A DNA stretch of 64,000 nucleotides, from the NCBI RefSeq assembly GCF_018977255.1, contig NW_024704757.1, positions 10,726,001-10,790,000 of the forward strand, read 5' to 3'. Position numbers and translations under genes: made by a program. The notes under the pieces were generated by a model. The model searched no databases and was not told the origin of the DNA. It saw nothing but the letters and a program-made list of their open reading frames with translations. Source of the DNA: Callorhinchus milii (Eukaryota). Positions 2,333-64,000 of this stretch are shown piece by piece (the first letter of the stretch is position 1; the number at the start of each line of letters is the position of its first letter).

Positions 2333-5300
2333 ATGTCGGAAAGGTACCACAAAGCCGCCAGGGATGGCTACTTGGCTCTTCTGAAAGAAGCCACCAGGAA
2401 GGATCTGAACACTCCAGATGGTGATGGGATGACCCCCACCCTGTGGGCTGCCTATCATGGCCAAGTGGAGGCTTTGCAGCTGATCTGCAGCAGAGGGTGT
2501 GTATGGACAAAGAACTGTGTGTGTGTGGGGGGGGGTGTGGGGGTGTTAGCAAGTGATTAGCAATTTGCTAACCACCCCAAAATATGATTATTTTGGATAT
2601 TATCATTTGGATATTGTTTTCAAAGAGCTAAGTTGTTACCATCCTATATATACAGTCAATTCACTTTACAGTGTGTTCTGTGAAGCGCTTTGGGACGTCC
2701 TCCCGACGTGAAAAGCGCTATATCAAATGCAAGGATTATTATCCTGATTATAACACCACTGTCAACCCATTTGAGACTCCCCACCCCACCAAAAACAAAG
2801 GTTATTTTTTTAAAAAAAAACACTGTGATTTATGTTTCCATCTAGCTTGTGAAAGTCTTTTTTTAAAAAAAAACTAATGCTTTGAGTTCAAAATAACAGC
2901 AGGTTTTAGATTTTACTCTGTTGTAAACGTTGGTTAAATGTTATGCTGGGTATCAAAGTGTCATCGTTGAAAGGCAGAGTTCTTTCTTCCTCAATCTTTA
3001 AAAAGTGGTCTAAAAATACTGTATCAGAAATGTTGAAACTGAAATAATTGTTCAAGAGGCTGAATTATGAAATTCATGCGCTCATTTGATTTCAACCCAC
3101 AATTTAAACTTCGTAAATGTCACATTTTGACATTTTATTGGGCAAATGTATAAAGTATAAAGAATAAGTTATAATTAGAATCCAGATACTTTGTCCAAGC
3201 AGGAGTGTGACCTTTTTTCCAAATATTTCTGAGGTGTAATAATGAATATCTCTGAGGTTAAAATGTATTTTTTTTGTAAACAAATTTTTTATTACATCGA
3301 GGCTCGACTATGCAAACTCCCTGCTTGTCGGTCTCCCCAACTCCTCCCTCCACAAACTACAGATCATCCAGAGCTCTGCAGCCAGTGTCCTCTCCCGCAC
3401 TGACCCTATCACCCCCATCCTTGCCCAACTCCACTGGCTTCCCATCACACAGAGGATACAGTTCAAGATCTTGGTCCTCAGCTTCAAAGCCCTCCACTGT
3501 CTTGCTCCTCCCTACCTCTGCAACCTCCTAACCTACTATCCTGTTCGCTCCCTCCACTCAGCGGGCTCTGGCCTGCTTCACATCCCCCGCCTTGCTCACC
3601 CCACTATCAGCGGGTGGGCCTTTCACCACTCTGCACTACACTCTGCACCCACCCTCTGGAACTTCACCCCCTGCCCTCCCCCACCCCGACCCTTAGCTCG
3701 AGTCCGAAATTCTGCCTGTCCAACGCCTAGGGACGTCCTCCCGACGTGAAAGGCGCTATATAAATGTCATTTTGTTGTCGTTCTTGATAAGGATCTCGAG
3801 TCAAACAAATAAGTCTTTTGCTAAGCTTTCGCTATCCTTTTGCTAAATGGAAGTACGTCACACCGACTCCTGGGAACTCCACTCTGACGGGGTCTATTTC
3901 CTAAATTAAATTCCTGTGGATTGACATGACATATTGTTGATTGCTGGAAGAAGTGCTCATTTATGTGAATCAGATTCATTATTACAGAATCCCATTAGAA
4001 AACATCCAATTTTAGATCTCACCATGCTTTGTCATGTTTTTATAAAGGTTTTTATACCATTTACTGTTTCCCCATTTGCAAAGGCTGAAGTGTCATTACA
4101 GGTTTGGTTCAAAACTATTTCTATGCTTCTAACAACTGGGAAGCACTTCCAATCCCATCTTTCTCTCTTTCTCTCTAGGACAGATTACTAGGAAAGGCTT
4201 GTGGTCTGATGGGCAATCCTTCTCTCACCTCTTCACTGCATTACAGACTTTCATGTTCTTATTTTAAACAATATTTGGTTTAGCTTCCCAGAACTTTCCT
4301 CTGCTCCTCCCAAACTCTGAATCCCCTGTGACATATGCTCTTTATCCTCACTGCACCCTCTGTGATCAAATCCAGAATCAATCTACTGTCTCCCACTCTA
4401 ACTTAATCTTTCTCAGCACTTCAAGGCTGTGGAAATTCCCCCCTCCAGTCAGCCTTCGGTTTCCTCCACTGAAAAAGCTCTTGAACCCCAAGCTTGGTGT
4501 CACCTAACCACACTTTCTGATATCTCACCTCTGTCCTAAATCTTGTCATCCCTGGTGGTTCCTGTACAAGATTTAATTCTTCACCTGAACATGTTATTAA
4601 AACCACACCAGTTTCCTGGGAATGGTGTACACTAACACTATGAAGGTTATGGTGCTGTATGGTTCAAACTCCATTCTATGAGTGTGATCATACCAGTAAC
4701 TTGCAACATTAAAGTGATGATCTTTGTGGGTCAAAGTTACTCCACATAAAATAGAGAGCTAGAGTTATAAATTGATGATTAAAACTGCAGATGATTTCAC
4801 AGTCACATGCAATAATAAAGAGGATTAAACCTTCCACTGGTGAGTCAGAGAGTAATGACACACCACAGTGTGGAACTGAGCCCGACAAGACCCCAGGTTT
4901 GGTCTGTTGGAGCTTGCCGATCCCAGCTGGAACAGTATTTGCATATAGTCTTATTTCACCTGGGCTAGGGAGGGAGAAATCAGCTAGGATTCAGAATCAT
5001 ATACGGTACACATCTATTCGGTTGAGTGTGAGTTCTGGGGAACTGAACTCAGTTGATTTAGTAATGTAGCCCAGCATTGCATTTGCCTAGTTTATTGCTG
5101 CCTCACAAATGTGAGTAACAATCTTGAGTGAGGACAATATTAGAACTAGCTGTGATGGCTGAATCTTCCCCCCAAGTGCAGTGTCCAAGGACAAGGCTAA
5201 GAAATGTCTACTTAAGTGAGGTGTCAGAGGATTGCTGATGTGGGTGGAACTGGCCCTGATACAGTCAGAAGAAGACAGATGAGGGAAGGAAAGTGTATCG

Positions 5301-15555: not shown

Positions 15556-15695
15556 GAAGGAGAACAGGAGAGAAGCGGTCACTGTGTGTGTGTATATATG
15601 TGTGTGTGTGTGTGTGTGTGGGGGGAGAGGGAGAGAGAGAGGTGTTGCTGAGCTCGTGTCTGCGGGAGGGTCTCAGTAGTGTTGGTGTGGCCGCC

Positions 15696-16304
15696 CTGGT
15701 GCTGGTCAGTGGGCACCTGGTGCTGGTCAGTGGGCACCTGGTGCTGGTCAGTGGGCACCTGGTGCTGGTCAGTGGGCACCTGGTGCTGGTCAGTGGGCAC
15801 CTGGTGCTGGTCAGTGGGCACCTGGTGCTGGTCAGTGGGCACCTGGTGCTGGTCAGTGGGCACCTGGTGCTGGTCAGTGGGCACCTGCTGCTGGTCAGTG
15901 GGCACCTGCTGCTGGTCAGTGGGCACCTGGTGCTGGTCAGTGGGCACTTGGTGCTGGTCAGTGGGCACCTGGTGCTGGTCAGTGGGCACCTGGAGCTGGT
16001 CAGTGGGCACCTGGTGCTGGTCAGTGGGCACCTGGTGCTGGTCAGTGGGCACCTGGTGCTGGTCAGTGGGCACCTGGTGCTGGTCAGTGGGCACCTGGTG
16101 CTGGTCAGTGGGCACCTGGTGCTGGTCAGTGGGCACCTGGTGCTGGTCAGTGGGCACCTGGTGCTGGTCAGTGGGCACCTGGTGCTGGTCAGTGGGCACC
16201 TGGTGCTGGTCAGTGGGCACCTGGTGCTGGTCAGTGGGCACCTGGTGCTGGTCAGTGGGCACCTGGTGCTGGTCAGTGGGCACTTGGTGCTGGTCAGTGG
16301 GCAC
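15696..16304. repeat. Minisatellite, 29 x 21 bp (CTGGTGCTGGTCAGTGGGCAC)
   Basis: 609 bp equals exactly 29 units with about 6 single-base variants; explains the 240-250 aa repetitive ORFs. Confidence 0.97.
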
Positions 16305-16476
16305 TTGGTGGGTGTCCTCAGTCACCGCCTATGGCCATAAGCTGTTGAGCCACTTGTCTCCTCCCAGTCACTGTGGACACTTGAAGGTCTTTAACTCTTG
16401 ACACTGTTTCTCTTCAGTTGGGTATCTTGAAACTCCCTGTATAGTGTTTGATGTTTTCCACACCAGACAGACGTTT

Positions 16477-44640: not shown

Positions 44641-47600
44641 TATTTACTCTGAACGGTTTCACAGTCCCAGTTCGCACACTGTGGTACAATGTGTGTAGTG
44701 TGTGTGTGGTGTGTAGTGTGTGTGTGTGTGTGTGAGGTGTTTGGTTATAAATTCAGAGCGACTGTTGTGAATACAAGCACTTTCAGCCATGTCAGCCCAG
44801 GGTTTCCACTCCCACTGCCTCACTTCAGTCTCTTTAAATGCATTTCCCTCCCCCCTCCCCCCCCCCCACTTATCCACTGATTGACTGCTCGTCAGCTACA
44901 GGACGGGTTGGCTACGGAGTGAAGCGCCCTTTCTGTCCTGTCCCAGCACTTCCATGTCAGGTTTCGTGGATTAAACGCTTTGTAGAGAGAGTGTGGCCGT
45001 GCGCCGCTGTCGGTCAGGTCTGGAACCGTAACCTTCCGAGTCACATCTCCATTGGGGATGTTTTATGCACAGTGCTAAAGTGACATCGGTTGTGTAGCAT
45101 TTCACTTGTGCGTACATTGAGGCAATGCTGCTCGTTGACCCTTCTGAACTCTAGTCTGCCCCTTAACTGAGTTGATTTTATTTTGGGAAATGCTAAGTAA
45201 GTTGTGAGTGTCTGGATCTCCTAGCTCTGTTGTTAGCGCTTTTCGCGATTTTCTCTGAACCTTCCTGTCCCTGGCACAGCCTCCTGAAGAGACTTTCCAG
45301 AAGGATCTGAAATGGTGCATCCAGCAGCTTGAACCTGGTCAAACCCAACTCGATGTGTCATCAAAGCAAGGTAGGCAGTAGATAAGGTAACTTATTTCAA
45401 ACCTACGGGAAGGGGAAACAACACAAGAAACCCAGGTAGAACTGAGAGTTTTACATGAGAGTATTAAAGCAACTTATGAGATTGGTCTGTGAGAGCTGGA
45501 AAACAAAATAGCTATTCACCCATCTCATCAAGTAAACAGCTTTCAGTATTTCACCCCAGAAGTTGCAATGAGTGCATCGAATGCAGTTAGCGAATATACT
45601 CAAGTGTATATCTGGAGTAAATTATCAGTGAAATCATTGCAGCAGACAGCATGAATGGGTTTCAAAGACAGCCAAGTGTGCTTTTGAGGGACTGAGAAAT
45701 ACAGGGGAGAATTTACTTTGGGGCTGTGATTTGTCAGAAGAGTGCTGGTTGAGTGAAATTATAATTTCTTGTTCTTAAACCATCAGTTGCTGACCATTCG
45801 TCTCTTTCTACACAGCAATACCACCGCAGACAGAGCATTGTGCTGGGAGCACGACAGATAGGGTCGAGCCGAGGGTCCAGGAGTCTGGCCACAGCTTCCA
45901 GGTCAACTTCACTGGGTTACCAAACCTAAGTGAGGAGGCAGCTGGAGTCACTCTGAACTCTGAGAGAAAGAGACCAGTTAGCGGTGGGGTGGCCATAAAG
46001 GAATCTCTGAATGGAAGTGAAGGGAATGACTTCCCAGCCGTCCCTTCAGGAACTGATGTCCAAGAGACGTTTACATTTACAATTCCTGAGGCTGCTGGTG
46101 ACCCTCAGCAAATAGCCTTACCTGATGTCTGTTGTACAACGCTGTCAGCTCAGGAGCAGTTGGGAATCAAGACACTGATGAAAAGCTGGCGGCGGTAGTG
46201 GGACATGAGAATCCAGCTTTTCAGACATCTGAAGCCCTGAAATTAGTTGATAATGTTACCTCCAAAACCAAGAAAAAGAAGAAAAAAAAATCTCACACAA
46301 GCCAGCTGCTGAAAACACACCCAAGGACGCACATCAGGAAGGAGAAAGCCAGGACAGTGGAGGAGCTCCAGCAAAGAACCATCTCTGGTATGGATACATA
46401 AAACTTTCCAAAGTGGGATGTAATGGGGAGGTGTGTGTTTGTATGGGTGTGGGGGGGAAGAAGGAGGATGCCTGATGGGTACAGTGGATTAATATATCAG
46501 GACCAATATTTGAATCCAGAAAACTGGATTGAAGGTTTGGTCTGGTGGCTGTATGGGTGGTAGAGTGCTGTAGGAATGACAACTAAATGAAAATAATTAC
46601 ACAGGAGAGGGACCTGCGAGTAGCAGTGGATAAATCTTAAGATGCTATTTTGTGTGAGGAGCGCTTTATAAATGGAAGTTGTTGTTTGTTGTTGTAGATT
46701 ATAAAAAGGATCTTGGGATATAGAGCTACAAGGATACACAGGAACGTAACGCTGGACTTGTAGAGTCAAACCCAACTCGATGTTTCATCACAGCTCTGTT
46801 TGTCGTATTACAGTAAGGACTGGTTTACACTAAAGAAAGTGCAACAAGATTGATGTCTACAATTAGGCAGCTCAGTTCTGATGAGAGAATACAGAAGCTT
46901 TCAATGTTCCCAATGGGGAAGAGAAGGCTCAGGGAAGATCTTATTGAACGCTTTAAGATTATAAGGGGTATAAACAAACTAAACTCCATTAATATGCTTG
47001 ACATCACTACAAACTCTACAGCAAGGGGCACAGATTCAAGCTCAGAAGAGGTAAGGTGATCATCCTGTTCAGATTGAAGTAGTTTACACAGCTAATGAAG
47101 CAGATAGCGTTGTATAGTAGTCTGCAAACTTTTTGGTCCATTGGTTAAAGAGGAGGTTAGAACAAAAATGGATATGAATATGGAATTTTCTGCCACAATC
47201 TGTATTGAAGCGGAGTCCATAAATTCTTTACAGAGTAGATGTTTTAAGTCCAACACAGCTTACGTTTCTTTCTCTCCCCACTTCCAGTCTCCAGAGGAGC
47301 AACTGCAGCGGGAGGTGGATTGGTGTATTGAACAGTTGGAGCTGGGGCTGCGCACTCAGAAGAGCAATCAGAAACAAGGTGTGTGCTTGGAGCTGAAGAT
47401 CACCCGACTGTTTGTGATTACAACCCGAAAGGCGCTACAACATATAAATGTAAATTGTTGTTGTTGATCAGAGCTGGAATTGCATATGATGTTTCAGTTC
47501 TGCATTAATCATGTGGAACCATAGTTTAGAGAAGTCATTGGCTTTCAACATAGCAGAGATTCACATGTTCTCACTGTGCCACCAGACAGCAGATTGGCAA

Positions 47601-51384: not shown

Positions 51385-54300
51385 CTGTTTAACAGTATGT
51401 GGAAACAAGAGATGGCATTATCTCTCTCCAGAGCTAGAAACAAACAGGGACCACTTGTGAGCAATGAGCACTGCAAAAAAAAGCAAACAGTATATTTACA
51501 ACATTTCCTGCCAAAGACAACAGCATCGCAGATACAGTGGGACCGTGACAGATCAGCACACGTCACACACCTGTATCCCAAGCGCAGTCAGGAAAAAGCA
51601 ACTTGATGCTACAATGGCAGGATGGTAGAGTGGATGTTCTGAAAGGATGAAATGGCCTGAAGGGTCCATAATAATTAATCACTTCTCTCAATCTTTTCAA
51701 ATAATTTAGTTGCCAAATAACTAATTCACCTTGGAAATTTGCTAACACAATTTAAATACTGAGATTATTTTTGTCACAGTACTTGTATCTCTCTCCTACC
51801 CTACCTATGGTTACACTGCATGAGCAGCCCCTCTGAGTGCCCCCAGGTCTGTGGGTGTATACCATTGTCGAGCTGCTGTCTGGAGTAGTGAGTAGCTTCG
51901 CTACATGCTGAGCTTGGGACAGGTCTAGAACTCCCATCCGTGCGCCCATCAGCAGAAATTTGCTTCCTGCCAGGTGATCCATAACCTCAATGTACGGTGG
52001 ATGGTGGCTCCTGCTGAAAAAGGGACCGGGTAGCAACAAGCAAGTGTCTGACAAAGGCCTGTAGAAAAAGGGGACAGAGATGCCAGATGTTAAATGTTAG
52101 TATAATTACATTAGAAAATGATTTGAAATGCACTACACATTTTAACTTTTTATAATCTTTATATATATATATATACACACACACATATCTTTGGACTGAA
52201 TACAAATGGCAGTAGTCATACACCAGTGAGATAAACAAGAAGACAGCAATTTTTGAATCTCCTTCATCTTTGTGCAATCGATTTCTATATTATTTCCCAG
52301 ATAGTATATTATCCTGGCTCAATTGCTGGTTCTATCACCTTTGAACCAGAAGGTTATGGTTACAAGCCCCACATCAGGACTTTGAACTCACAAAGTGAGT
52401 TGTTAACACTCCAAATCCAGTTCTAGTGATGTGTGGCATTGCCATCCTTTGGATGAGATGTTTAACTGAGGTCCATATTCCTGTTCACATGGACATTAAA
52501 GATCTCATGGCATTACTCAAAAAGGGAAGGGAGTTTCTCTAGTGTCCTGGCCAATAATCTCCCAAATAAAATTGGTCATTTACTTCATTACCTTTCTGTC
52601 CGAGTTGGATTTTAAACAAGCCTTGGAGATGGGAGGACAATGCAAAGTGCTAACAATTTCCCCTCCAGGTGCAATCCATATCAATGATAAAAATTTAAAT
52701 TGAGCACTCATGTTGTCCTCACTTTCTAAGGGCTCCCATATAGAGCTTGTACTGTCTCCACATGAAAGTGACATGAGCCAAAGCAATCCTGTGTCTTTCA
52801 ATCCTTCCTATTATAACAAGTGTGTAAAAGATTAGAGCCTGACCTTATAAAGTCCTTTGACAGTATTAAAGGGGAAACTTTGTCTTCCTAATCCAAATTG
52901 ATCCTCAAAATCAAATCAATTGGCTCCTAATCTTATTGTTGTGTCTATGAGGGAGTTGTACCACTGTGAATCATACTATACACTTGATTGATTTCTGAGT
53001 TTCTCACTTTGGTGAATTTAGGTGAGTGCAGCAATAATTAACATTTGGTCAAAAAATATTATTTTAAGGATAATGCAAACATGATTCAGAAAGCAGTTAT
53101 CCTGCCATTGCACCTAAATGTACAGAACTCCTATTTATTTGTGGTTTGCAAGTTGATCAACTGTTATTTGGATTCTATAAGGTTTGATGGGATTACCTTG
53201 TTGTCCACTCCATGCAACAGTTACTGCCTGGGACTCAGCAAGAGAGGAACGTCTGACAAGCTTGCGATTATGTGTGAATTCAGGGCTGATCAGCAAATCC
53301 TTTTTTTTGTGAGAATCTGAAAATGAGAAGCAGATACAAAAATTAATTACTGAACTCTACAGCCAAGGCAATTCAGGAGGAAATGCTGCCTCACAAGGCC
53401 AGGATAATTCCGAGCAATATTTAATATACAGGTCAAGGCAAGTTAATGCTTTGAGCAATACATTATTTTCTTTTAGGTCAGTCAGGTGTCTGACACGAGC
53501 AGAAACCCATCATTATGCCAAAAGAGTGTCCTAACCAGTCTGTACGTCTACCTCTGCTTCACCTGTTCATTCTGCAGCATTTGAGACTCTTCACAACACA
53601 GTCCTTCCGGGAAAAACATCTGCACATCCCTGACTGCAGTCTTATAAGATTGGGAACCTGGAAATAAGAAAGCACAGAGAGTTACAGCATCACTGCAGTT
53701 GTACACAGAGTTATCCTGTACCAGAGATGGCAGACACCAACCAGCATAATTTACAGAGATGTTTTACTCTGCTACCCAGGCTTTTCTAAATCTATACATT
53801 TCAGAAACAACAACAATTTGCATTTATATAGCGCCCCTCCTGCAGGTTGGCGTTCCAGAGCTCTAAGATAAAAGTAATAGTACTTCAGACAGTCTGCAAT
53901 GAACCCCTATTAAGTTTTGATTCAGTGGCATAATAATCCAGAAAACAAATATTACACAAATTGTGAGAATATGGAATAAATGACCTGAGAAGACCAAATA
54001 TAGTCACTTGAGAGTCTTTCAGAAGATGGAGATGGATAGATAGGATAAAGAGTTGTAGATTTAGTGATGAAGCAACTTGGGTACAACAAGATCCATCCTA
54101 GTTATGCTTAGTAAAATAAGAATAATGGACATGCGTTGTATTAAACCTGTTAAATGACGTACCATAGAAGCCATTGTGGACGAGGTCTGTCCCACAGTGA
54201 CCTCTCCATAGGAACTGGTTCAGGGCTCTGGCCTCATGGGGATCTTCCGGTCCAAGCAAGTCAAGCAGCTTTTTCACAGCATTTTCTCGTTGAACACACA

Positions 54301-57300
54301 AAATGGCTGAGGGACTTGAGGTCAGGGAATCAACACTGCGGCTCATCAAATCCGGTTCCTGAAAACAGATGTTAGATTTCAGTTATTAAGAGATCAGAAT
54401 GCATCTCACCAAGTAACTCATAGGTAGTGCTGAAACACTGGATGGTGAAGTCTGCTTTTTGACTTGACTTCAATCGAATTTCACCATAAAATAGTAATCA
54501 AACTCTCATCTCAGACTTCGTGCCCAAATATACTTATGCTTACAAAATCAGCAACCACACTGTCTATTTTTTGTTTCATGGAGAAAAATAACTGTAAAAC
54601 CATGCACATGGTGTTAACTTTTAGTCCATTCTCATAACAAAACATCCTCCTTACCCAAGATGCATCAAACGCTAATTTCTCCAGGGTATTATTTAATATC
54701 TATATTTTTAAAATCATATATTTCAGGAATACCAGCAGATAAAGACATGGTTCATTGCTCACTGAAACTTCAGAGCTTATAACAGCAATTTATCAACGTG
54801 AAAACCTAACACTTTTGGGAACTATATAGTATGCAGGCATTCTCTAATCTCTGTATGTTCAGTATAGATACAGGAACAGACAACTAGAAACACAAGAGCC
54901 ATACAACAACAACAAAATTATATTTGTATAGTGCCTTTCACGTCAGGAGGACGGCCCATACCTTTGGAAGAAAGCAAATTATTTCATTGCCACATATACT
55001 ACCTGTTGTATGTTGGACGGAGACAGAAGGGAGGCTTTCTCTTTGTCCAGACTGACCAATTTCATACCAACAATATAGAAGTGCTCCAGGTCTAGTTTGT
55101 GGAGAATCTTGGAGAAATGCCGGGGCAAAGTGGAGGGCTTGATCACCAGCACAGTAAGCAAGGGTTGGGCTCCTTTAACAAATAGCAGTAAGGTTGGATA
55201 AGTGTCACAAAGAGTTTTCTGATTCTTTTGAGCTCTAATAGCAAAACTATTCGAGCCACTGTTCTACATAAACCAATTCAGTACATGAGAAGTTTATTAA
55301 AACCTGATATTTGCGTGCCTAGCTTCACCAGTGAATTTCAAATCATTACAACACTAAAGAGATAGAATGATCGCGGAGTGAACGAATAATGCAATGACGG
55401 GGCTGGGGGGAGCCAGGGACATAAGAAAAACAAGACAGATTAGAGGGAAAAGAGAAAAAGAAGAGTGAATGATGGAAGAGGACTAAGAAAGAAAGTACGA
55501 AGAGAGAACCAAAATTAGATTTTGTGATTCAAGGACAAAAACAACAATGGGAAAGAGCTAACAAAGAAAAATAAATAATCATTGTAAATGTAGCCAGCGC
55601 TTACCAAGCAACATGTAGGTAAAGATAGACTCTTTGTTGATAGCTTGTGATCTTTTCCCTGAAACAGGAAGAGGTCTGATAAGAGTCAGCTAGGAATGGT
55701 GGATACAAAGGAGTAATGAGGAATATAGTCACATGCATAAGCTAAGGCACAACAATACCTACAGCACATTGCAAGGTCAACAGGAATAGCAACAGTGAAA
55801 GTAATACATGGATGGTAACTACAAAAATCATCATTTAATACTATGTTTTTATAATTCTCTTTATTTAGTTGTGCATAAATACGATCTACACTTTTCTCAG
55901 CATCGTCCGAATCATGGACCCCATTATCTTCACTGTAGATCATGCGGATGAGATTTTTCAGCTGTTATAAATCTATATTAAAGATACACAAACACACAGT
56001 GATATATAGTCAGAGTCAGCAATTGATTACATGTACCTGTTGCAGTGTTCCCCGAGCTGAGAGAGGGTGCAATGTACTTCAGTAACGGTCGGGCACTTGG
56101 ATCTGAGGACAGTAGAAAGTGTGTACAGAATAATAATAATCCGTGCATTTGATATAGCACTTCACTTTATTACATCTTTGAGATGTCTCAAAGCGCTTCA
56201 CAGAATATACGGTAAAGTGAGTTGACTGCAGATTTTGTGGGCGAAATATTGAAATGTCAAAACAATGCAACTATCAGTTAAATGGATCAGTGGAAAACTA
56301 TGATTATTTCTGGTTATGTTGTAACTGCATCCCTTATAGATTAGATCTTCCTCACTCGGAGTTAAAGATGTGTTACGTAATATGTATGCATCATACCTGA
56401 AACTAGTTCCCGGTCAGTGAAGAATAAAGCAGCTTGTCGGAAAGCTATCTCTGGAGTTGGTGACATGATTTTCTCCAGGTTGCTTTGCTTTGCATTGAGT
56501 AGACTGACTTTGGAGTTAGTTGTATTTAGAATTTCAGCCAACACACCAAAGGCACGGACCCGCCGCAGCACACATACAAGAGCTGGGCTGGACACCAGGC
56601 AGTCAATGCTACCCTGCCAATGTCGGTCGCCCACTTCAAATGGGGTTAGTTCCTTGGCCTGGCTGCTGCTCAGATGCGGCAACCATTTCAAGCCTAGCAG
56701 TTCAAAACCTCCATCTGCCATATTGTTTTCTGAGGAAGTAAGCGCAGAAATTAGCAAAAGACATTCAAAGGATCATTAATGCTGCAGTATAGAAACAACC
56801 CATTTAGTGAATCAAATCTGCACTAACGTTTTTCCACATGAGTCACCTAATTGAAATCCATGTTCCTACTCACTATTCCTTCAGGTATCTACATAAATCC
56901 CATTTCAAATAATTTTTGTACTTTTCTAATTTTTGGCCTTAACAACAATCCAACCATCTTTTGTGTAAAGAAATATTTTTTGAATTTCCACTTTAATTCA
57001 TTGTGTTTATTTTATTTGTGTGACTACTTGCTATTGATTTTCTGATTAGTGAAAAGTTCACAAAATACATTTTCTCCATTTAACAAAATTATTAAGCCTG
57101 CTGCACTGGAAGGTAAGGCGATTCTTACCTCTGATAAAGTTTTTCTGCTAGACTTTACTCCTCCTTTAATATATGTTAAATGGTCTTACCAGATTGACCT
57201 TGTGATTGGTTCACTGTAGGACGCAGAAGCTCCCGCAAGCCGATCCCGGCTTCTTTCATGGTTTTGTGCCCAGTCATTGTGAGAACGACAACCTGCTCCA

Positions 57301-60300
57301 GTTCGGGGTTGGACATGTAGCTGTGCTTATAGAGCACATCCAGTGTGAGACTGGCAGAGTCAGCCACTGCACTCAGACTTCCTCCTGCCACCGGCAACAA
57401 TCACATAATGGTAAATGAATCACTGAGAGCAATCTAAGAACACAAAGCTGAACCATATCTGAAATATATAAGTAAACGTTTTAAAGGGTAACATTCAGAT
57501 GAAGATGTAGATAGATTATAAATGTCCAGAATCACACTTGATGGGTCAGTTATAGGAAAGACCTAATCTGAGGTTGAATTATTTCTGAAGGATGTTGTGC
57601 TTCAAAACATATCATTGAGCTTCCAGCGTTGTCGTGTTTTAAAATGCCTTTAAATAGATATGGAAATCCATCACCATGCTTAAAAGTATCCAAACCAAAC
57701 AGAGCTCCATGCATTCCAATTACATATGGAAATTCCTGTATATTGGAATAGAATGCTCTCTTCCCAGAGGGACATACCCTACTTATCTATTAGGGATGCT
57801 AGAGTGTGGATTGGGGTACTGCTGATTTTTAACCAGCTAAAACCACATAGCTTATCTTTGAAAGCCCTGTCTGGCAAGCCTCCTGCTGTTTGTCCAGCTT
57901 GAACCATCTTATCTGTTAGGCTATTTTAAGTTATGATTTGAAAAAGATATTTACCTGGCTACTGGAAAGTCCTTACCTAGTCCCTGCAGAATGTGGTCAG
58001 TGTAAGGCACCACATGAAAACACAATCCAATATCAAATTCAGTGATGTGGGGAAGTCTGCTCTGTACACTTCCAATCAAGCCCTGTTCAGACAGTTCATT
58101 CATTAATCCTGCAGAAGAATAGTAACCCAGACATTGTGAAACGACTCCTGACTGAAATTGTAGAAACACAGGGATGGCAATAACTACAAAGGTCAACACA
58201 AAGAGGCAAAGAAAAAGCCATATCGGTTAATCATTTCAACGCTGTACCTTTCAGTAAACTGGGAACATGATGACAAACATTCTCTTTTCTCAGCAGCATT
58301 AAAAAACAGTGACTAGGCAACTCATCAACAGCAGAGCCTTGTGAAGTTAAGGATCCATTGCTGGATGTTCGACAAAACACTGAGATCTGCAAGTTAACAG
58401 AAATATATTGATAACAATATCGCTTTTTAAAAGTAGATTGCAGTTACTTTTCATTGCTCTACATACAGCCTTCCACTAGTACTGGCAAAATGTCACAATT
58501 TTTGAAACTCATTGAGAAACAATTTGATAAGACTAACAGCAAACATGCTCCCAACTAAAATCCATGCTTTACCAATCGTTTCCTACCTCAGCGCCTTGGG
58601 ACGTGCTCCCGACGTGAAGGGCGCTCAATAAATGGAATGTTGTTGTTGTACCTGCTTACTCCCGATGCCGAGACTGTTGGCTCGCTTTGGAGTCAGACGC
58701 AAACGTCGCACACCTTGCAGACTGAATCCCCGTCTGGTACAGACTGACAGGATATCACCACAGCAATTCAGAGGCACAGCAGGCGATACCAGCAGCAGTA
58801 GGTCAGCTAGGAAATAGAAAAAGAAACAAACAAATTACATCAAAAATAACTATATAGTGAAATCCTGTTGATTGTGGCCTTCAGGTTGCTGATTTCTTGG
58901 CAGAAAGCACCAGTTACAGTAGAGTAAGTTTAACCTGATACCATGCATTCTGAATCACATTTCAAACGGGATGCTTGTTCCTTTAGTATATTTAACCTTT
59001 GCCAACTTAATCCATAGTTCTTTAGATTAGAGTGGACAGCTCTGCTCAGTGATAAAACCATCAAGTCCCATTCCCTTATCACTTGTATCAATTCAGGTAG
59101 TGTCTCCAACTTGAACTTTTGAAAGATTTGTTCAATGGTTTGCGGTCTAGAATAGGGTAGAAACTTGTTGAGAAAATGCAAAATACTGCAGATGCTGAAA
59201 ATCTGAAAATAGAAACAGAAGTCGCTGGGAACACTCAGCAGGTCAGGCTTTGTCAGAACAGATGCAGTTCTGACGAAGGGTCGTGGACCCGAAACGTTGA
59301 CTCACTTTCCTTTCTCCATAGATGCTGCCTGACCTGCTGAGTGTTCCCAGCGACTTCTGTTTTTGTGTTCAGAAACTTGTTGAGTCTGTGGAAAGTATGA
59401 AACAGCAAACACAGAATCCAGTTCCCTTGATTTCATCGTTACATTAGGTCGTGACATCTCCGAGCTGACCATCACTGATGACTTCCTCACCTCCATCACC
59501 ACATCTCCCTCCCTTCCACTAAATCTGCCCCACGCTGTTTCTTCTCTCTGTGTTGGGAGTCGCAGAGCATTTACCTTTGATGGTTGCAACAACTGTAGCA
59601 GGAGGTCTGCAGGGTATAATCTGTTGTGCACCCCTATCCTGTCTGGAGTTTGTGTGGGTTCCTGTGGGCTGTGGACTGTTTGATCTGAAAGTAAAGAATT
59701 AAATGATAATAATAATTGGCATGTTTGATATAGCACATTTCACAGCAGGATGGCTCAAAGAGCTTCACAGGATTTACGGTGAAGTGCAGTGACTATGTTT
59801 TTGTAGGAGAACAAAAGTTAGAGTCAGAGAGCTAGAGAAAGAGAGAAAACAGGCTGATACAGTAACAGTATAATTCCTGATGGAAGAATTGCTTGTTTAA
59901 AACTGTGGTCAATTTGTATTTTAGGAGCTGCCACTGCTTTCATATCTAAATGGCTCTCAGCTTTTTACTGTAGTCTCACATCCTTTTATTTTGTTTATCT
60001 TCGAATACGTGTCCTATTCATTTTTAAGTGTTGCCACGGTCAAAGGATTCAGTGTTCTAATGTAGGAAAACATAACATCTAAGAGAAGCTATTTCTGCTA
60101 CCTTCCCTCTCAAGTGACAAACCTAGATTTAATGACCCTTCTTTCCTGATTCTGTGAAAGGTACGATGGATCCTGTTGCTCATATATGAATGGGATAGAC
60201 GCCTGTTTTAGATTTATTTGCATTGGATGAACAAACACGCCCTTCCTGTACAGGGTGCCACATACCTGGATCTGAACCTGGTCCTCCTGACAGGATTCTG

Positions 60301-63190
60301 AATGCCAACTTGCACAATCCCATCTTCAGGAACCCTCCCACCGAACCACACGTACAGCTCCCAGTAGATACGACTCTCCTGGCGCGGGGAGTAAAGGAGT
60401 GGCTCACTACGACTCTTGCAGTACAACGCATTTATGGAATGCCGATCTGTCACACTGGCTACCCCAGGATCAAATGGTCCTACAATGTCCATCCACAATA
60501 CACGGGCATTTGCACCTCTCAGTGCCAATGCCAATACAGGCATTGTTTTTGTATCATCAGAGCAATAAGTAGAAGGCAGTTTACCTAAAGAAACCAAAAT
60601 CCGAATGAGAACACAGAAATGTACGTTAGAGTGCACTTAAAGGGAGTAAAGACGTCTTGAAGACGTGATAAGGCGCTAGATCAAATGCAAGGATTATTAT
60701 TAGTGTGTGAAATGAAGCTTTAGTGGCCACTTCATTGTGTACAGTAGACTTTGTGGGAACACTTCAGTCTGCCATAACAATGCAGCACACGACATTATAA
60801 CAATTAAGCCCATTCAAACAACTTCAATAAGCCTTTAAATGCTCAACTCTTCACCCTCCCACCCAATATAAATAATTACATATAAATGTGCAGCCTTTGC
60901 AAATATACTCCCTGAATGAGATACTTTTCTCTCCTAGCGTAATCACGGAAAATCACCACAGGTGTTTGGTGCTGCAGTTCCCTTACCTGTGCTGTCAGTC
61001 AGGAGGCTATGTGTTGGATACAGCAGTCGAAGACCACAGATATCTATACCATTGCTTAGGATGAGCTGCAGCACGTGGTGAAATGCTATGGGATCACTGA
61101 ACAAGTTCTCAAACACTAGTGCCATGGTAACCTGAGAGTAGAGAAATATTAGAATTAATGCTTCAATCAATCGACTGATACCAAGTTCCACTGTGCATCC
61201 TTAGCTATTGGTAAATCAGTACTTTTTAACAGAATTATTCTATTATAATATTATTCGTTGGATAGGAAAATTCTCTGAGACTGGGTTCTTTCTGATTTGG
61301 AGTATTGTTAATGGGAATTGTCATTGTACTGTTATTGGATTTTTTTTTACCAACACTAGAATTTGCGCCCAGTGGCTCCTATGGCACAGAGATTATGCAC
61401 TTTAATGCTCCTACGTTGGACAACTCTCTCCCTATCACATTATTAATGCCTGAATTATTAGGCCCAGGAAGCGAATGATCACCTTGCCATACCTCAGGAT
61501 TCTCCTTACAATTCTCCCCAATCTCCTCGGCACTGGGGCAGCAGTTTTCCTCGGTCTCCACTGTTTGCCAGTAAAACCCAATCTGAACCTTAAAAACTTT
61601 TTCAACGGCCTGTATAAGAGCCAAAAACTAAGAATGAAATTAAATCCAAACCATAAAGACAAACTTATTCATAATTGATTTGTAGTTTAGTAATAATTCC
61701 TTCAAACCATAATAATAAATTGGTCACTTCAATCCACAATGGTTTGCAGGACACTGCTGTGTGCAATTGACTGTCGCTTTTCGCCCACAAAATATACAGT
61801 CAATACACTTTACAGCATGTTCTGTGAAGTGCTTTGAGATGTTTCAAAGACGTGATAAGGCGTTATATCAAAAGCAAGCATTATTAGTATTATTTATAAT
61901 GATGGACATTTAGCCATCAAATAGGATATACACCAAATAACACTGCTAAATTGTAATAAAGCATTACTCTATATCACAAGTATTCTTTAAAGCTTTCAAT
62001 CCATTAGGTTTTTTTAAAAAAATCCCATATATCACCACTAGCCACAATATATTCAAACACTATCCACTGGCTGACCTTAGTGTCTGGACTGACAGAAATC
62101 ACGGAGCTGAGGCGAGCAGAAGGAAGGCACACGTGCATTGGACACAATTGTTCCGAAAGACGATTGTTCAGCTGTTCACTCCACCAGATCACTGGTTTCA
62201 GACTAGTTTGTGATAGGAATTTCACAACCAGCTGATAAAATGCAGAGGTGCCTCTTAACTCTTCCTTTACCTGAAAATAATCAAAGAGAAGAGGCAAACC
62301 CGGACAGCCAGTCAGCAATCACATAATCAGCCACTTACCTCCGAACCCTCAGGAAACCTCTGGGGGACAATGACATCAATTTACTGCCCACCTTCAAACT
62401 GACTGGATGGATGCATAGGAATTGGCTGGACAATATTGCAGGCAAAGACATTAGAATTCATAGGGTTTCAAAATTACACTGTAGCAGAAAGATACTTCTG
62501 TTGCATTTCATTTCACCTTTAAAGATGTACTGTATTTGCCCTTAGATCTCTCAGTTTCTCAACATCATTAAGAACTTAACAGCACAATACACAGTTAGTA
62601 AGCGAGAGACCTGGGTTCGATTCTCGGGCAAGGCGAAATGTTGGGCAAGTTTCCTTACTCCACACCTCTCTGTTTACCTAGCAGTAAGTAGAAACCGTGT
62701 TGTTAGTCGATTGGTGGATCGCTTTTCCAGGGGTAATAATCCCTTCAAAAAAAAATAATAACAATATATTGGTCACTTCAATCCATGACTGTTTGTGGGA
62801 CACTGCTGTGTGCAATTGGCTGGAACGTTTCGCTCACAAAATATTCAGTCACTGCACTTTACAGTGTGCTCTGTGAGGCGCTTTGAGACGTTTCAATGAC
62901 GTGACAAGGTGCTATATCAAATGCAAGGATTATTATTATCATATTATCAGTATAATACTCGCACGCTAAAGTATTTCATAGTTGAGTAGGGCATCACTGA
63001 CCCTGTTCTTTCGATTCCTGCTGTAGATAGGCTGGACAAAACCCTCACACATTGGTATCACACAGACGTAAAAAGCTAGCCCATCTTCACGCCAGGTCTG
63101 TTGGAGACCCACCACCTGAAATGGTGCGACCACCTCAGCTTCAGAGCAATCTCCATATGATCGATTCACAGAACAGGTAGGAACGGTCAC
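51385..63190 (-). CDS. DNAAF8: Large protein with degenerate nucleoside-diphosphate-kinase-like domains, probably the long non-mammalian form of DNAAF8 (C16orf71/Daap1); partial
   Basis: Phase-consistent GT-AG exons: 63002-63190, 62076-62270, 61493-61609, 60987-61131, 60266-60584, 59575-59684, 58652-58806, 58248-58386, 57977-58108, 57190-57384, 56397-56729, 56037-56102, 55605-55658, 55003-55172 (LTVLVIKP...FYIVGMKL), 54163-54358 ([11 protein letters not shown]...[11 protein letters not shown]), 53563-53657. Then 53197-53316 and 51863-52058 (each one base short) and 51385-51470. The NDK-fold motifs are seen directly; the gene name is inferred. Confidence 0.7.
56128..56250 (-). mobile_element. 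SINE 3' fragment
   Basis: aataataataatccgtgcatttgatatagc...gtctcaaagcgcttcacagaatatacggtaaagtg...gtgggcgaaa. Confidence 0.75.
59173..59370 (+). mobile_element. Short foldback element (Penelope-like terminal repeat derivative) with a 14-bp target-site duplication
   Basis: Direct repeat AGAAACTTGTTGAG at 59159-59172 and 59371-59384; perfect 36-bp inverted arms at 59213-59248 and 59327-59362. Confidence 0.8.
59266..59302 (+). ncRNA. Minimal type I hammerhead ribozyme motif
   Basis: AGTT-CTGACGA-A-GGGTC-gtg-GACCC-GAAAC-GTT-GACT: CUGAnGA and GAAA core boxes, 5-bp stem II, palindromic ACGT stem III, stem I AGTT/GACT with one G-U pair. Confidence 0.65.
61705..61895 (+). mobile_element. SINE copy (body and tail)
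   Basis: ttggtcacttcaatcc...ctgtgtgcaattgac...cgcccacaaaatatacagtcaa...gtgataaggcgttatatcaaa. Confidence 0.8.
62599..62939 (+). mobile_element. Near full-length tRNA-derived SINE lacking the A box
   Basis: aagcgagagacctgggttcgattctc (B box), then body and tail colinear with the 36232-36600 copy. Confidence 0.85.
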
Positions 63191-63319
63191 CTAATCAACC
63201 AAAAAAGAGTTACTTCATAAATACAATCCACTCGTCTTAGTGTGCAACTTAATTTTCTTACAGTATTATTTTTCAAATACAATGACGTAGTTTTATTTCC
63301 CCAGTTTGTTTAGCTTCCA

Positions 63320-63430
63320 GTAACAACGACAACATTACATTTGTAAAGCGCCTTTCACGTCGGGAGGACGTCCCAAGGGTCTAGACAGACAGAGTCACGG
63401 ACCTGAGCTGGGGGTCAGGGGTCGGGGTCG
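63320..63430 (-). mobile_element. L2 3' tail fragment
   Basis: aacaacgacaacattacatttgtaaagcgcctttcacgtcgggaggacgtcccaag; same tail as at 28034 and 30405. Confidence 0.7.
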
Positions 63431-64000
63431 GTATCAAGTTCCAAGGCAATAATTAGTTTAGGCAATTCTGACAGTGCCACGAACTCTGAAGAGTCCAACT
63501 ACAAGGTTATTCTGTACTTATTAAGGTGATGGAACACATTCCCATTTTAGGTACAAAGCATCAATTAGTATGAAGCACTTCCGGATTACGTGAAAAGCAA
63601 AGGTGAATGGAAAAAGCTGTGTGGGGTTGTCAGTGATACCAGCAACAACCTGATAACCTTTAGTCATTCTTTTTAAGCTTTGTTATAATGCAGTCTGAGA
63701 CATTAGAGCCAGACAACTACATTATAGTGTAGTTATACAACACTTGAAAATATTTTTGGTCAGTTTAATAGTTTTCCTTATATCGGGATGTCTGAACGTG
63801 CTCATCAGTGCAGATGTTGGCATGCATGAGAACATGTGAAGGAGCAAAAAGAATGTAAATTCATTCCACAAAAATGTTTTAAATTAAGTCAAGCAGCGGA
63901 TCACTTCAGGATCTTGAGAAAACAAAGTCACTCTGTTCCTAATGGTTAAAAATAACAAATCTAGTGAATCGACAGAGGTATAGACATTTCTAAAAGCAGA

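Follow-up and report, generated by a model that had tools for sequence, protein, structure and literature searches.

Penelope-like elements (PLEs) are the closest described systems to the locus studied here. The accessible parts of two reports describe PLE insertions in which an inverted truncated copy is accompanied by a one-sided tail, the C-x4-C-x2-C feature being named as well (PMC8557442), and the combination of an inverted pLTR, a tail, and a target-site duplication (TSD) of 8-10 bp (PMC3846280). According to the portion of PMC11167929 used here, two adjacent internal RT start sites serve insertion, both strands are cut and extended, and hammerhead cleavage is dispensable for insertion in vitro. 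The excerpted text of PMC4209133 covers minimal PLE hammerheads, which occur as solo motifs and as opposite-strand pairs 100-700 bp apart, and places an intron end in D. virilis at the 5' end of helix I.

We analyzed a 198-bp hairpin at positions 59173-59370 of the window, i.e., the whole 64-kb stretch of DNA under study. Very probably, this insert is a head-to-head pair of 5'-truncated ends from an endonuclease-bearing PLE, one of which has a 32-nt tail; the pair likely arrived in a single insertion event and has likely been inert since. It was rightly singled out and belongs to a kind already on record: the literature on PLEs describes inverted pLTRs, one-sided tails, TSDs, and minimal hammerheads. 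The single locus carries little weight, being one stub among thousands; the statistics of its family bear on the way in which PLEs generate inverted repeats and tails confined to one side.

Architecture of the insert and its host intron

The insert is flanked by an exact 14-bp repeat, AGAAACTTGTTGAG, at 59159-59172 and 59371-59384, with no further occurrence in the 64-kb window, in agreement with the TSD claimed by an earlier sequence-only reading. The first three bases of the right copy (AGA) also match the continuation of the parent element, leaving the boundary uncertain by 3 nt. Equally exact are the 36-bp inverted arms of that reading: 59213-59248 is the perfect reverse complement of 59327-59362, and the inverted arms reach 47 nt at 94% identity. 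The whole insert folds at -115.3 kcal/mol (z -12.4), none of 200 shuffles being equally stable, an excess for which the inverted arms alone account.

The right arm (59265-59370, plus strand) is a forward, tail-less PLE end, which begins with CAGTTCTGA at the 5' pile-up of the family (see below) and corresponds to the final ~105 nt of the element. It shows 80-100% identity, mostly >90%, to the 3' ends of RT/GIY-YIG-bearing copies, and the absence of any substitution relative to the column-commonest letter over 107 aligned columns places the window insert among the better-kept copies. The left arm is the same PLE end inverted, with 4 departures from the column-commonest letter in 75 aligned columns over its whole length. 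Read on the minus strand, it comprises GTTCTGACAAAG (59248-59259), a 49-nt gap, the end body including the 36-bp arm (59205-59248), and a 32-nt tail (59173-59204). The tail represents the distal RT start zone and matches the sequence beyond the arm end in tailed copies; in the parent element, it runs on into the 5' ORF region, as seen in L192, L197, and L198. The 49-nt deletion, which has 1-nt microhomology, left GTTCTGACAAAG behind as a remnant of the 5' end of the inverted copy, and five bases of filler (59260-59264) separate the two arms. Undeleted relatives, namely L057 and a mini copy with its own TSD inside L143, are near-perfect palindromes. Judged from their sequences, the two arms of the insert are independent truncations of one PLE end, although later deletions could mimic the same pattern.

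The right arm harbors the hammerhead core that the sequence-only reading had recognized, a complete minimal type I motif on the plus strand (59266-59302), whose architecture supports the Penelope-type assignment by comparison with the accessible part of PMC4209133. The 4-bp helix I is formed by AGUU (59266-69) and GACU (59299-302), the core CUGACGA (59270-76) is followed by an unpaired A (59277) preceding the 5-bp helix II (GGGUC/GACCC, 59278-90), and GAAA (59291-94) leads to helix III, a palindromic ACGU, with the predicted cut after 59298. This is the sole clean hammerhead core in the 64-kb window, where no second matching copy was found; a looser core pattern also matched 47393-47440 on the plus strand (CTGAAGA...CGAAA). 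A scan of 54000-64000 with Rfam returned no hammerhead family, its lone match being a weak miRNA hairpin far below cut-off, which is no evidence against a hammerhead because minimal motifs lie outside the models. Compared with shuffled sequences, the hammerhead part alone has no extra stability (z -0.25 and -0.39).

The remnant CTTTGTCAGAAC (59248-59259) pairs with 59267-59278 in the 5' half of the hammerhead at 11 of 12 positions, a pairing also present in the MFE structure. Its presence lowers the computed share of hammerhead-like folds from 4e-3 to 3e-7 in a calculation confined to monomers and free of tertiary contacts, so that the left arm is predicted to keep the monomer hammerhead of the full insert from folding correctly. 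The proposed sequestration of the ribozyme therefore holds as pairing but not as a dedicated switch, because the 12-mer is the 5' tip of the inverted copy left by the 49-nt deletion. We infer that the hammerhead is a passenger, having no adjacent same-strand partner and lying antisense to the host gene.

The insert resides in a 768-nt intron (58807-59574) with minus-strand splice ends between the exons 58652-58806 and 59575-59684. A contig from run X6, guessed to be RNA, joins these two exons with 60266-60580 and 60983-61133, and a contig from X5, likewise guessed to be RNA, covers three of the host-gene exons. The gene spans 54100-61200 of the window on the minus strand and contains several degenerate NDK-like domains; Pfam NDK (PF00334) matches appear in four of five exon translations, all below cut-off. 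We take it, as a guess, to be dynein-assembly-factor-like. Its orientation makes the plus-strand ribozyme antisense to the host transcript, as had been stated. Both insert junctions were found in the organism A runs X1, X2, and X4, and the right one in X5. In a second species, organism B, a 3,272-nt contig (runs X17 and X19, one sample) aligns to 58649-59120 and 59534-59751 and has 196 nt between the aligned blocks, compared with 413 in the window; these 217 fewer nucleotides are close to the 212 expected for an empty site, which agrees, by length and in one sample, with an orthologous site shorter by about the size of the insert. Elsewhere, the window contains a tandem array with a 63-bp period and ~98% identity (15695-16310).

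The parent element and its relatives

A 30-mer from the right arm has 2,094 exact matches genome-wide (992 Mb; control 0), while the junction between the arms occurs once at ≤1 mismatch, in the window itself, which indicates that the unit has not been re-amplified. BLAST with the whole insert yielded 1,394 candidates, of which 40 were scored. The sequence-only reading had proposed asking whether copies share both ends and have their own TSDs: the 30 best relatives have both end zones in common, and TSDs of their own accompany many of them; their middles differ among the relatives shown. Among the relatives, solo ends grade continuously into ORF-bearing copies of kb length, and arms range from the tail only to >1 kb. 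The refutation proposed in that reading, according to which random ends without TSDs would mark an ordinary fragment, poses a false choice, since ordinary PLE fragments too have non-random ends and TSDs.

Upstream, several long copies continue as a decayed reading frame in which YIDN-type RT motifs, a C-x4-C-x2-C linker, and a GIY-YIG-like EN can be recognized. Decayed RT frames with a C-terminal GIY-YIG were found in L105, L124, L134, and L143, and the linker, a feature of the Neptune clade, in translations of L122, L123, L124, L129, and L135. Pfam detected GIY-YIG in one of four parent fragments (E 0.0064, below cut-off) and no RT match on three parent fragments; the nearest Atlas clusters of the parent fragments are GIY-YIG (0.97) and RVT_1 (0.95). 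An RVT_1 search of the genome gave at least 150 RT matches, and none of the translated copies showed an intact parent ORF. Together with a pLTR end carrying an optional tail, a minimal hammerhead in the pLTR, and a short TSD of variable length (14 bp here), the RT and C-terminal GIY-YIG of the parent identify the insert as a probable fragment of an endonuclease-bearing PLE.

On the 5' side, the hammerhead region and the tail pass on into the 5' ORF region in L192, L197, and L198, and L183 and L192 are partial tandems. L192 (1003-1400) keeps ~45 nt upstream of the hammerhead, including a TATA-like box, followed by hammerhead, tail, and ORF start, and is thus a partial tandem retaining a putative promoter. 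The copies L216-L240 constitute a second subfamily, in which helix II reads AGGUC/GACCU, the changes (G-C to A-U) keeping the pairing. L143 was at first suspected to contain a full-length element; it turned out to contain a truncated long copy, with an unrelated mini foldback lying 1.6 kb further upstream. This mini insertion (minus strand, 3483-3712) is near-perfectly palindromic, with its own TSD, and its arms meet at CAGAAC/GTTCTG, making it the clearest case of two cDNAs ending on the same base.

Arm pairing, 5' ends, and the origin of the insert

For family statistics, we used 99 of the first 100 listed 30-mer sites, taken in the order of the genome irrespective of their similarity to the insert, and removed seven second matches within already counted units, leaving 92 insertions. 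Forty-five are two-armed, and exactly one arm is tailed in 42 of them (24 + 18), the others being two scored as tail-less and one scored as two-tailed. On inspection, these three exceptions proved to be two partial tails and one double insertion. L061 (1750-3600) looked like a two-tailed unit, a reading that was dropped, as ~12 nt of flank are inverted too and a later fold-back duplication is likely; two other repeats are nested in its long arm. The remaining 47 insertions are one-armed (27 tailed, 20 without tail), some of them showing very short or distant inverted pieces on inspection. TSD scores of ≥8 were obtained for 30 of the 45 two-armed insertions (lengths 8-16; null 3.5% from 400 shuffled flank pairs) and for 8 of the 47 one-armed ones (null 4.3%). 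Two-ended priming is therefore not established for all copies, given that 47 of 92 are one-armed and only 8 of these have a TSD.

Arms were compared in 41 one-tail units, with L046, L077, and L101 left out and the window copy added. The tail-less arm extends further 5' than its partner in 19 units, the tailed arm does so in 13, and in nine the two end within 8 nt of each other. Tail-only tailed arms face long arms in five units (L053, L082, L095, L098, and L116). Together with the 19 further-reaching tail-less arms, these five argue that neither arm was simply copied from the other. The 3' ends lie mostly at +93 to +105 in tail-less arms and at +129 to +142 in tailed ones. Variants are shared between the arms of one unit at 0.0140 per site (null mean 0.0053, maximum 0.0106 in 500 shuffles), and such arms differ at 9.6% of sites, which is close to the null mean of 10.7% and shows that they have not been homogenized.

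The 5' ends of the arms are concentrated. Of the 92 pattern-bearing arms, 33 start inside a 7-nt stretch where helix I begins, including 14 whose first base is the G of GTTCTGA, and the others start within the next 53 nt upstream (6), further upstream (13), or downstream (40). In the genome, 389 sites match the hammerhead-start pattern exactly; the first 100 of them served as a second sample for a hand count, in which 48 differ from the parent at the base immediately preceding that G and just 19 carry on with the upstream sequence of the parent. In copies retaining the upstream part, a TATA-like box lies 30 nt upstream of the pile-up in two subfamilies, as TTAAAAG and as TTATAAT-like words in L216-L240. 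The forward arm of L077 comprises the tail plus ~70 nt from the 5' ORF region, abutting CCAGTTCTGA without a gap inside one TSD, a join that looks like a template jump at the RNA 5' end. The pile-up and the upstream TATA-like box suggest run-off at a transcription start, which is our preferred reading; trimming of the RNA down to the folded motif or a splice-related end, as in D. virilis, might instead be the cause. A 3' splice site (CAG/TTCTGA) fits poorly, given that the G is retained in 32 of the 33 arms of the pile-up and that no upstream exon common to them was seen. An apparent G excess before A-starts, considered as a cap-G signature, lost its support in the same hand count of the first 100 of 389 matches, where the base preceding GTTCTGA is A in 52, C in 20, G in 15, and T in 13. 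Starts at the predicted cut site (+28) were likewise dismissed, with few arms starting at +23 to +29 and no comparable peak. The terms searched retrieved no paper on such a 5' pile-up.

The insertion probably arose as follows. The RT/GIY-YIG protein would nick both strands 14 nt apart, and each nick would prime reverse transcription from a start site of its own: the distal one at the tail end in one case, the proximal one, ~35-40 nt upstream, in the other. The two resulting cDNAs would run to the RNA 5' end, the first base of the hammerhead, and would be joined via the 5-nt filler, fill-in giving the TSD. The 49-nt deletion, during copying or later, would have shortened the left arm. Frangieh et al. 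found start-site use to be without strand difference, which counts against two-site priming because the one-tail rule needs paired, unlike site use. A more detailed version, which we regard as plausible yet rather more doubtful than secure, has a TATA-type promoter of the upstream pLTR set the start of the element RNA to precisely the first base of helix I, one RNP prime both nicked strands at two internal sites of the 5'-proximal copy, and both cDNAs run off the RNA 5' end after 105-140 nt. If true, double run-off would account for the mini foldbacks in their thousands as well as for the one-tail rule and the shared ends, and no dedicated non-autonomous element would be needed. From the one-tail rule and the pile-up follow clear-cut predictions, both for the in vitro PLE system and for mapping of 5' ends.

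Among the other explanations, single priming with subsequent formation of the second arm from the first, through either fold-back self-priming or the copying of an antisense template, has been proposed for rotifer PLEs from palindromic junctions (PMC3846280, in the part accessible). The near-perfect palindromic junctions of L057 and of the mini copy in L143 are consistent with it, as is the within-unit sharing of variants above the shuffled maximum, although such sharing is equally expected from one source locus or subfamily. We nevertheless consider this route improbable, because in 19 of 41 units neither arm contains the other, the tail-less arm having extra 5' sequence and the tailed arm the tail, and because tail-only arms stand opposite long ones.

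A dedicated non-autonomous foldback of retrozyme or MITE type, transcribed, self-cleaving, and re-inserted as a unit, is very unlikely in our estimation. The end zones shared by the 30 best relatives with their TSDs, the intact core of the insert, and non-LTR retrozymes reported as PLE derivatives in the available text of 10.64898/2026.07.22.740005 would all suit such an element, but the middles and arm lengths vary, the core is intact in just 24 of the 52 sampled arms reaching it, no tandem array exists at the locus, and the hammerhead-like fold of the full insert is computed to be vanishingly rare. The mobile unit of the sequence-only reading thus survives as a piece inserted at once with its own TSD; as a self-contained, self-cleaving unit or retrozyme it does not, the junction being unique and the relatives a continuum. 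Least credible of all is co-option of the hairpin or ribozyme for control of the host gene as an editing substrate, splicing modulator, or antisense switch. A 36-47-bp duplex would form in the pre-mRNA, 204 nt from a splice donor, and insert junctions recur in four other runs of organism A, but the insert is absent by length in organism B, is one of thousands of similar stubs, and carries an antisense ribozyme, and the X6 contig joins the flanking exons normally.

Comparison with known systems

The insert resembles non-LTR retrozymes, as far as the consulted portions of 10.64898/2026.07.22.740005 and PMC6155905 describe them, in being short, non-coding, and PLE-related and in carrying a type I hammerhead. 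Unlike those head-to-tail tandems with a hammerhead in each unit, it is a single head-to-head stub in the 64-kb window, and with its one genome-wide junction match the unit has not been amplified as a family. With the hammerheads in the accessible part of PMC4209133, the motif shares the short helix I, the unpaired base between 9 and 10.1, the G10.1-C11.1 pair, and the palindromic 15.2-16.2. Its helix II has 5 bp, in contrast to 7-8 bp in the schistosome families covered there; its cut site is GUU, and its opposite-strand partner has lost most of the motif.

Compared with Poseidon of Anolis carolinensis (PAc), in the part of PMC11167929 available, two RT start zones likewise bound the tail ~100-140 nt behind the hammerhead, and hammerhead and tail stand at the start of the 5' ORF region of the unit. 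The parent linker is, however, of the C-x4-C-x2-C (Neptune/Nematis) type, the start zones are U-rich where those of PAc are AC-rich, and the insert has no ATG at helix II. The closest match is to the PLE insertions in the accessible text of PMC8557442 and PMC3846280. Whereas the arms of the insert are cut to ~85-105 nt with no ORF sequence between them, it shares with those insertions the head-to-head end repeats, the tail on one arm (30-40 nt there), the parent with RT and C-terminal GIY-YIG, the TSD (8-16 bp), and, in its relatives L183 and L192, the partial tandems.
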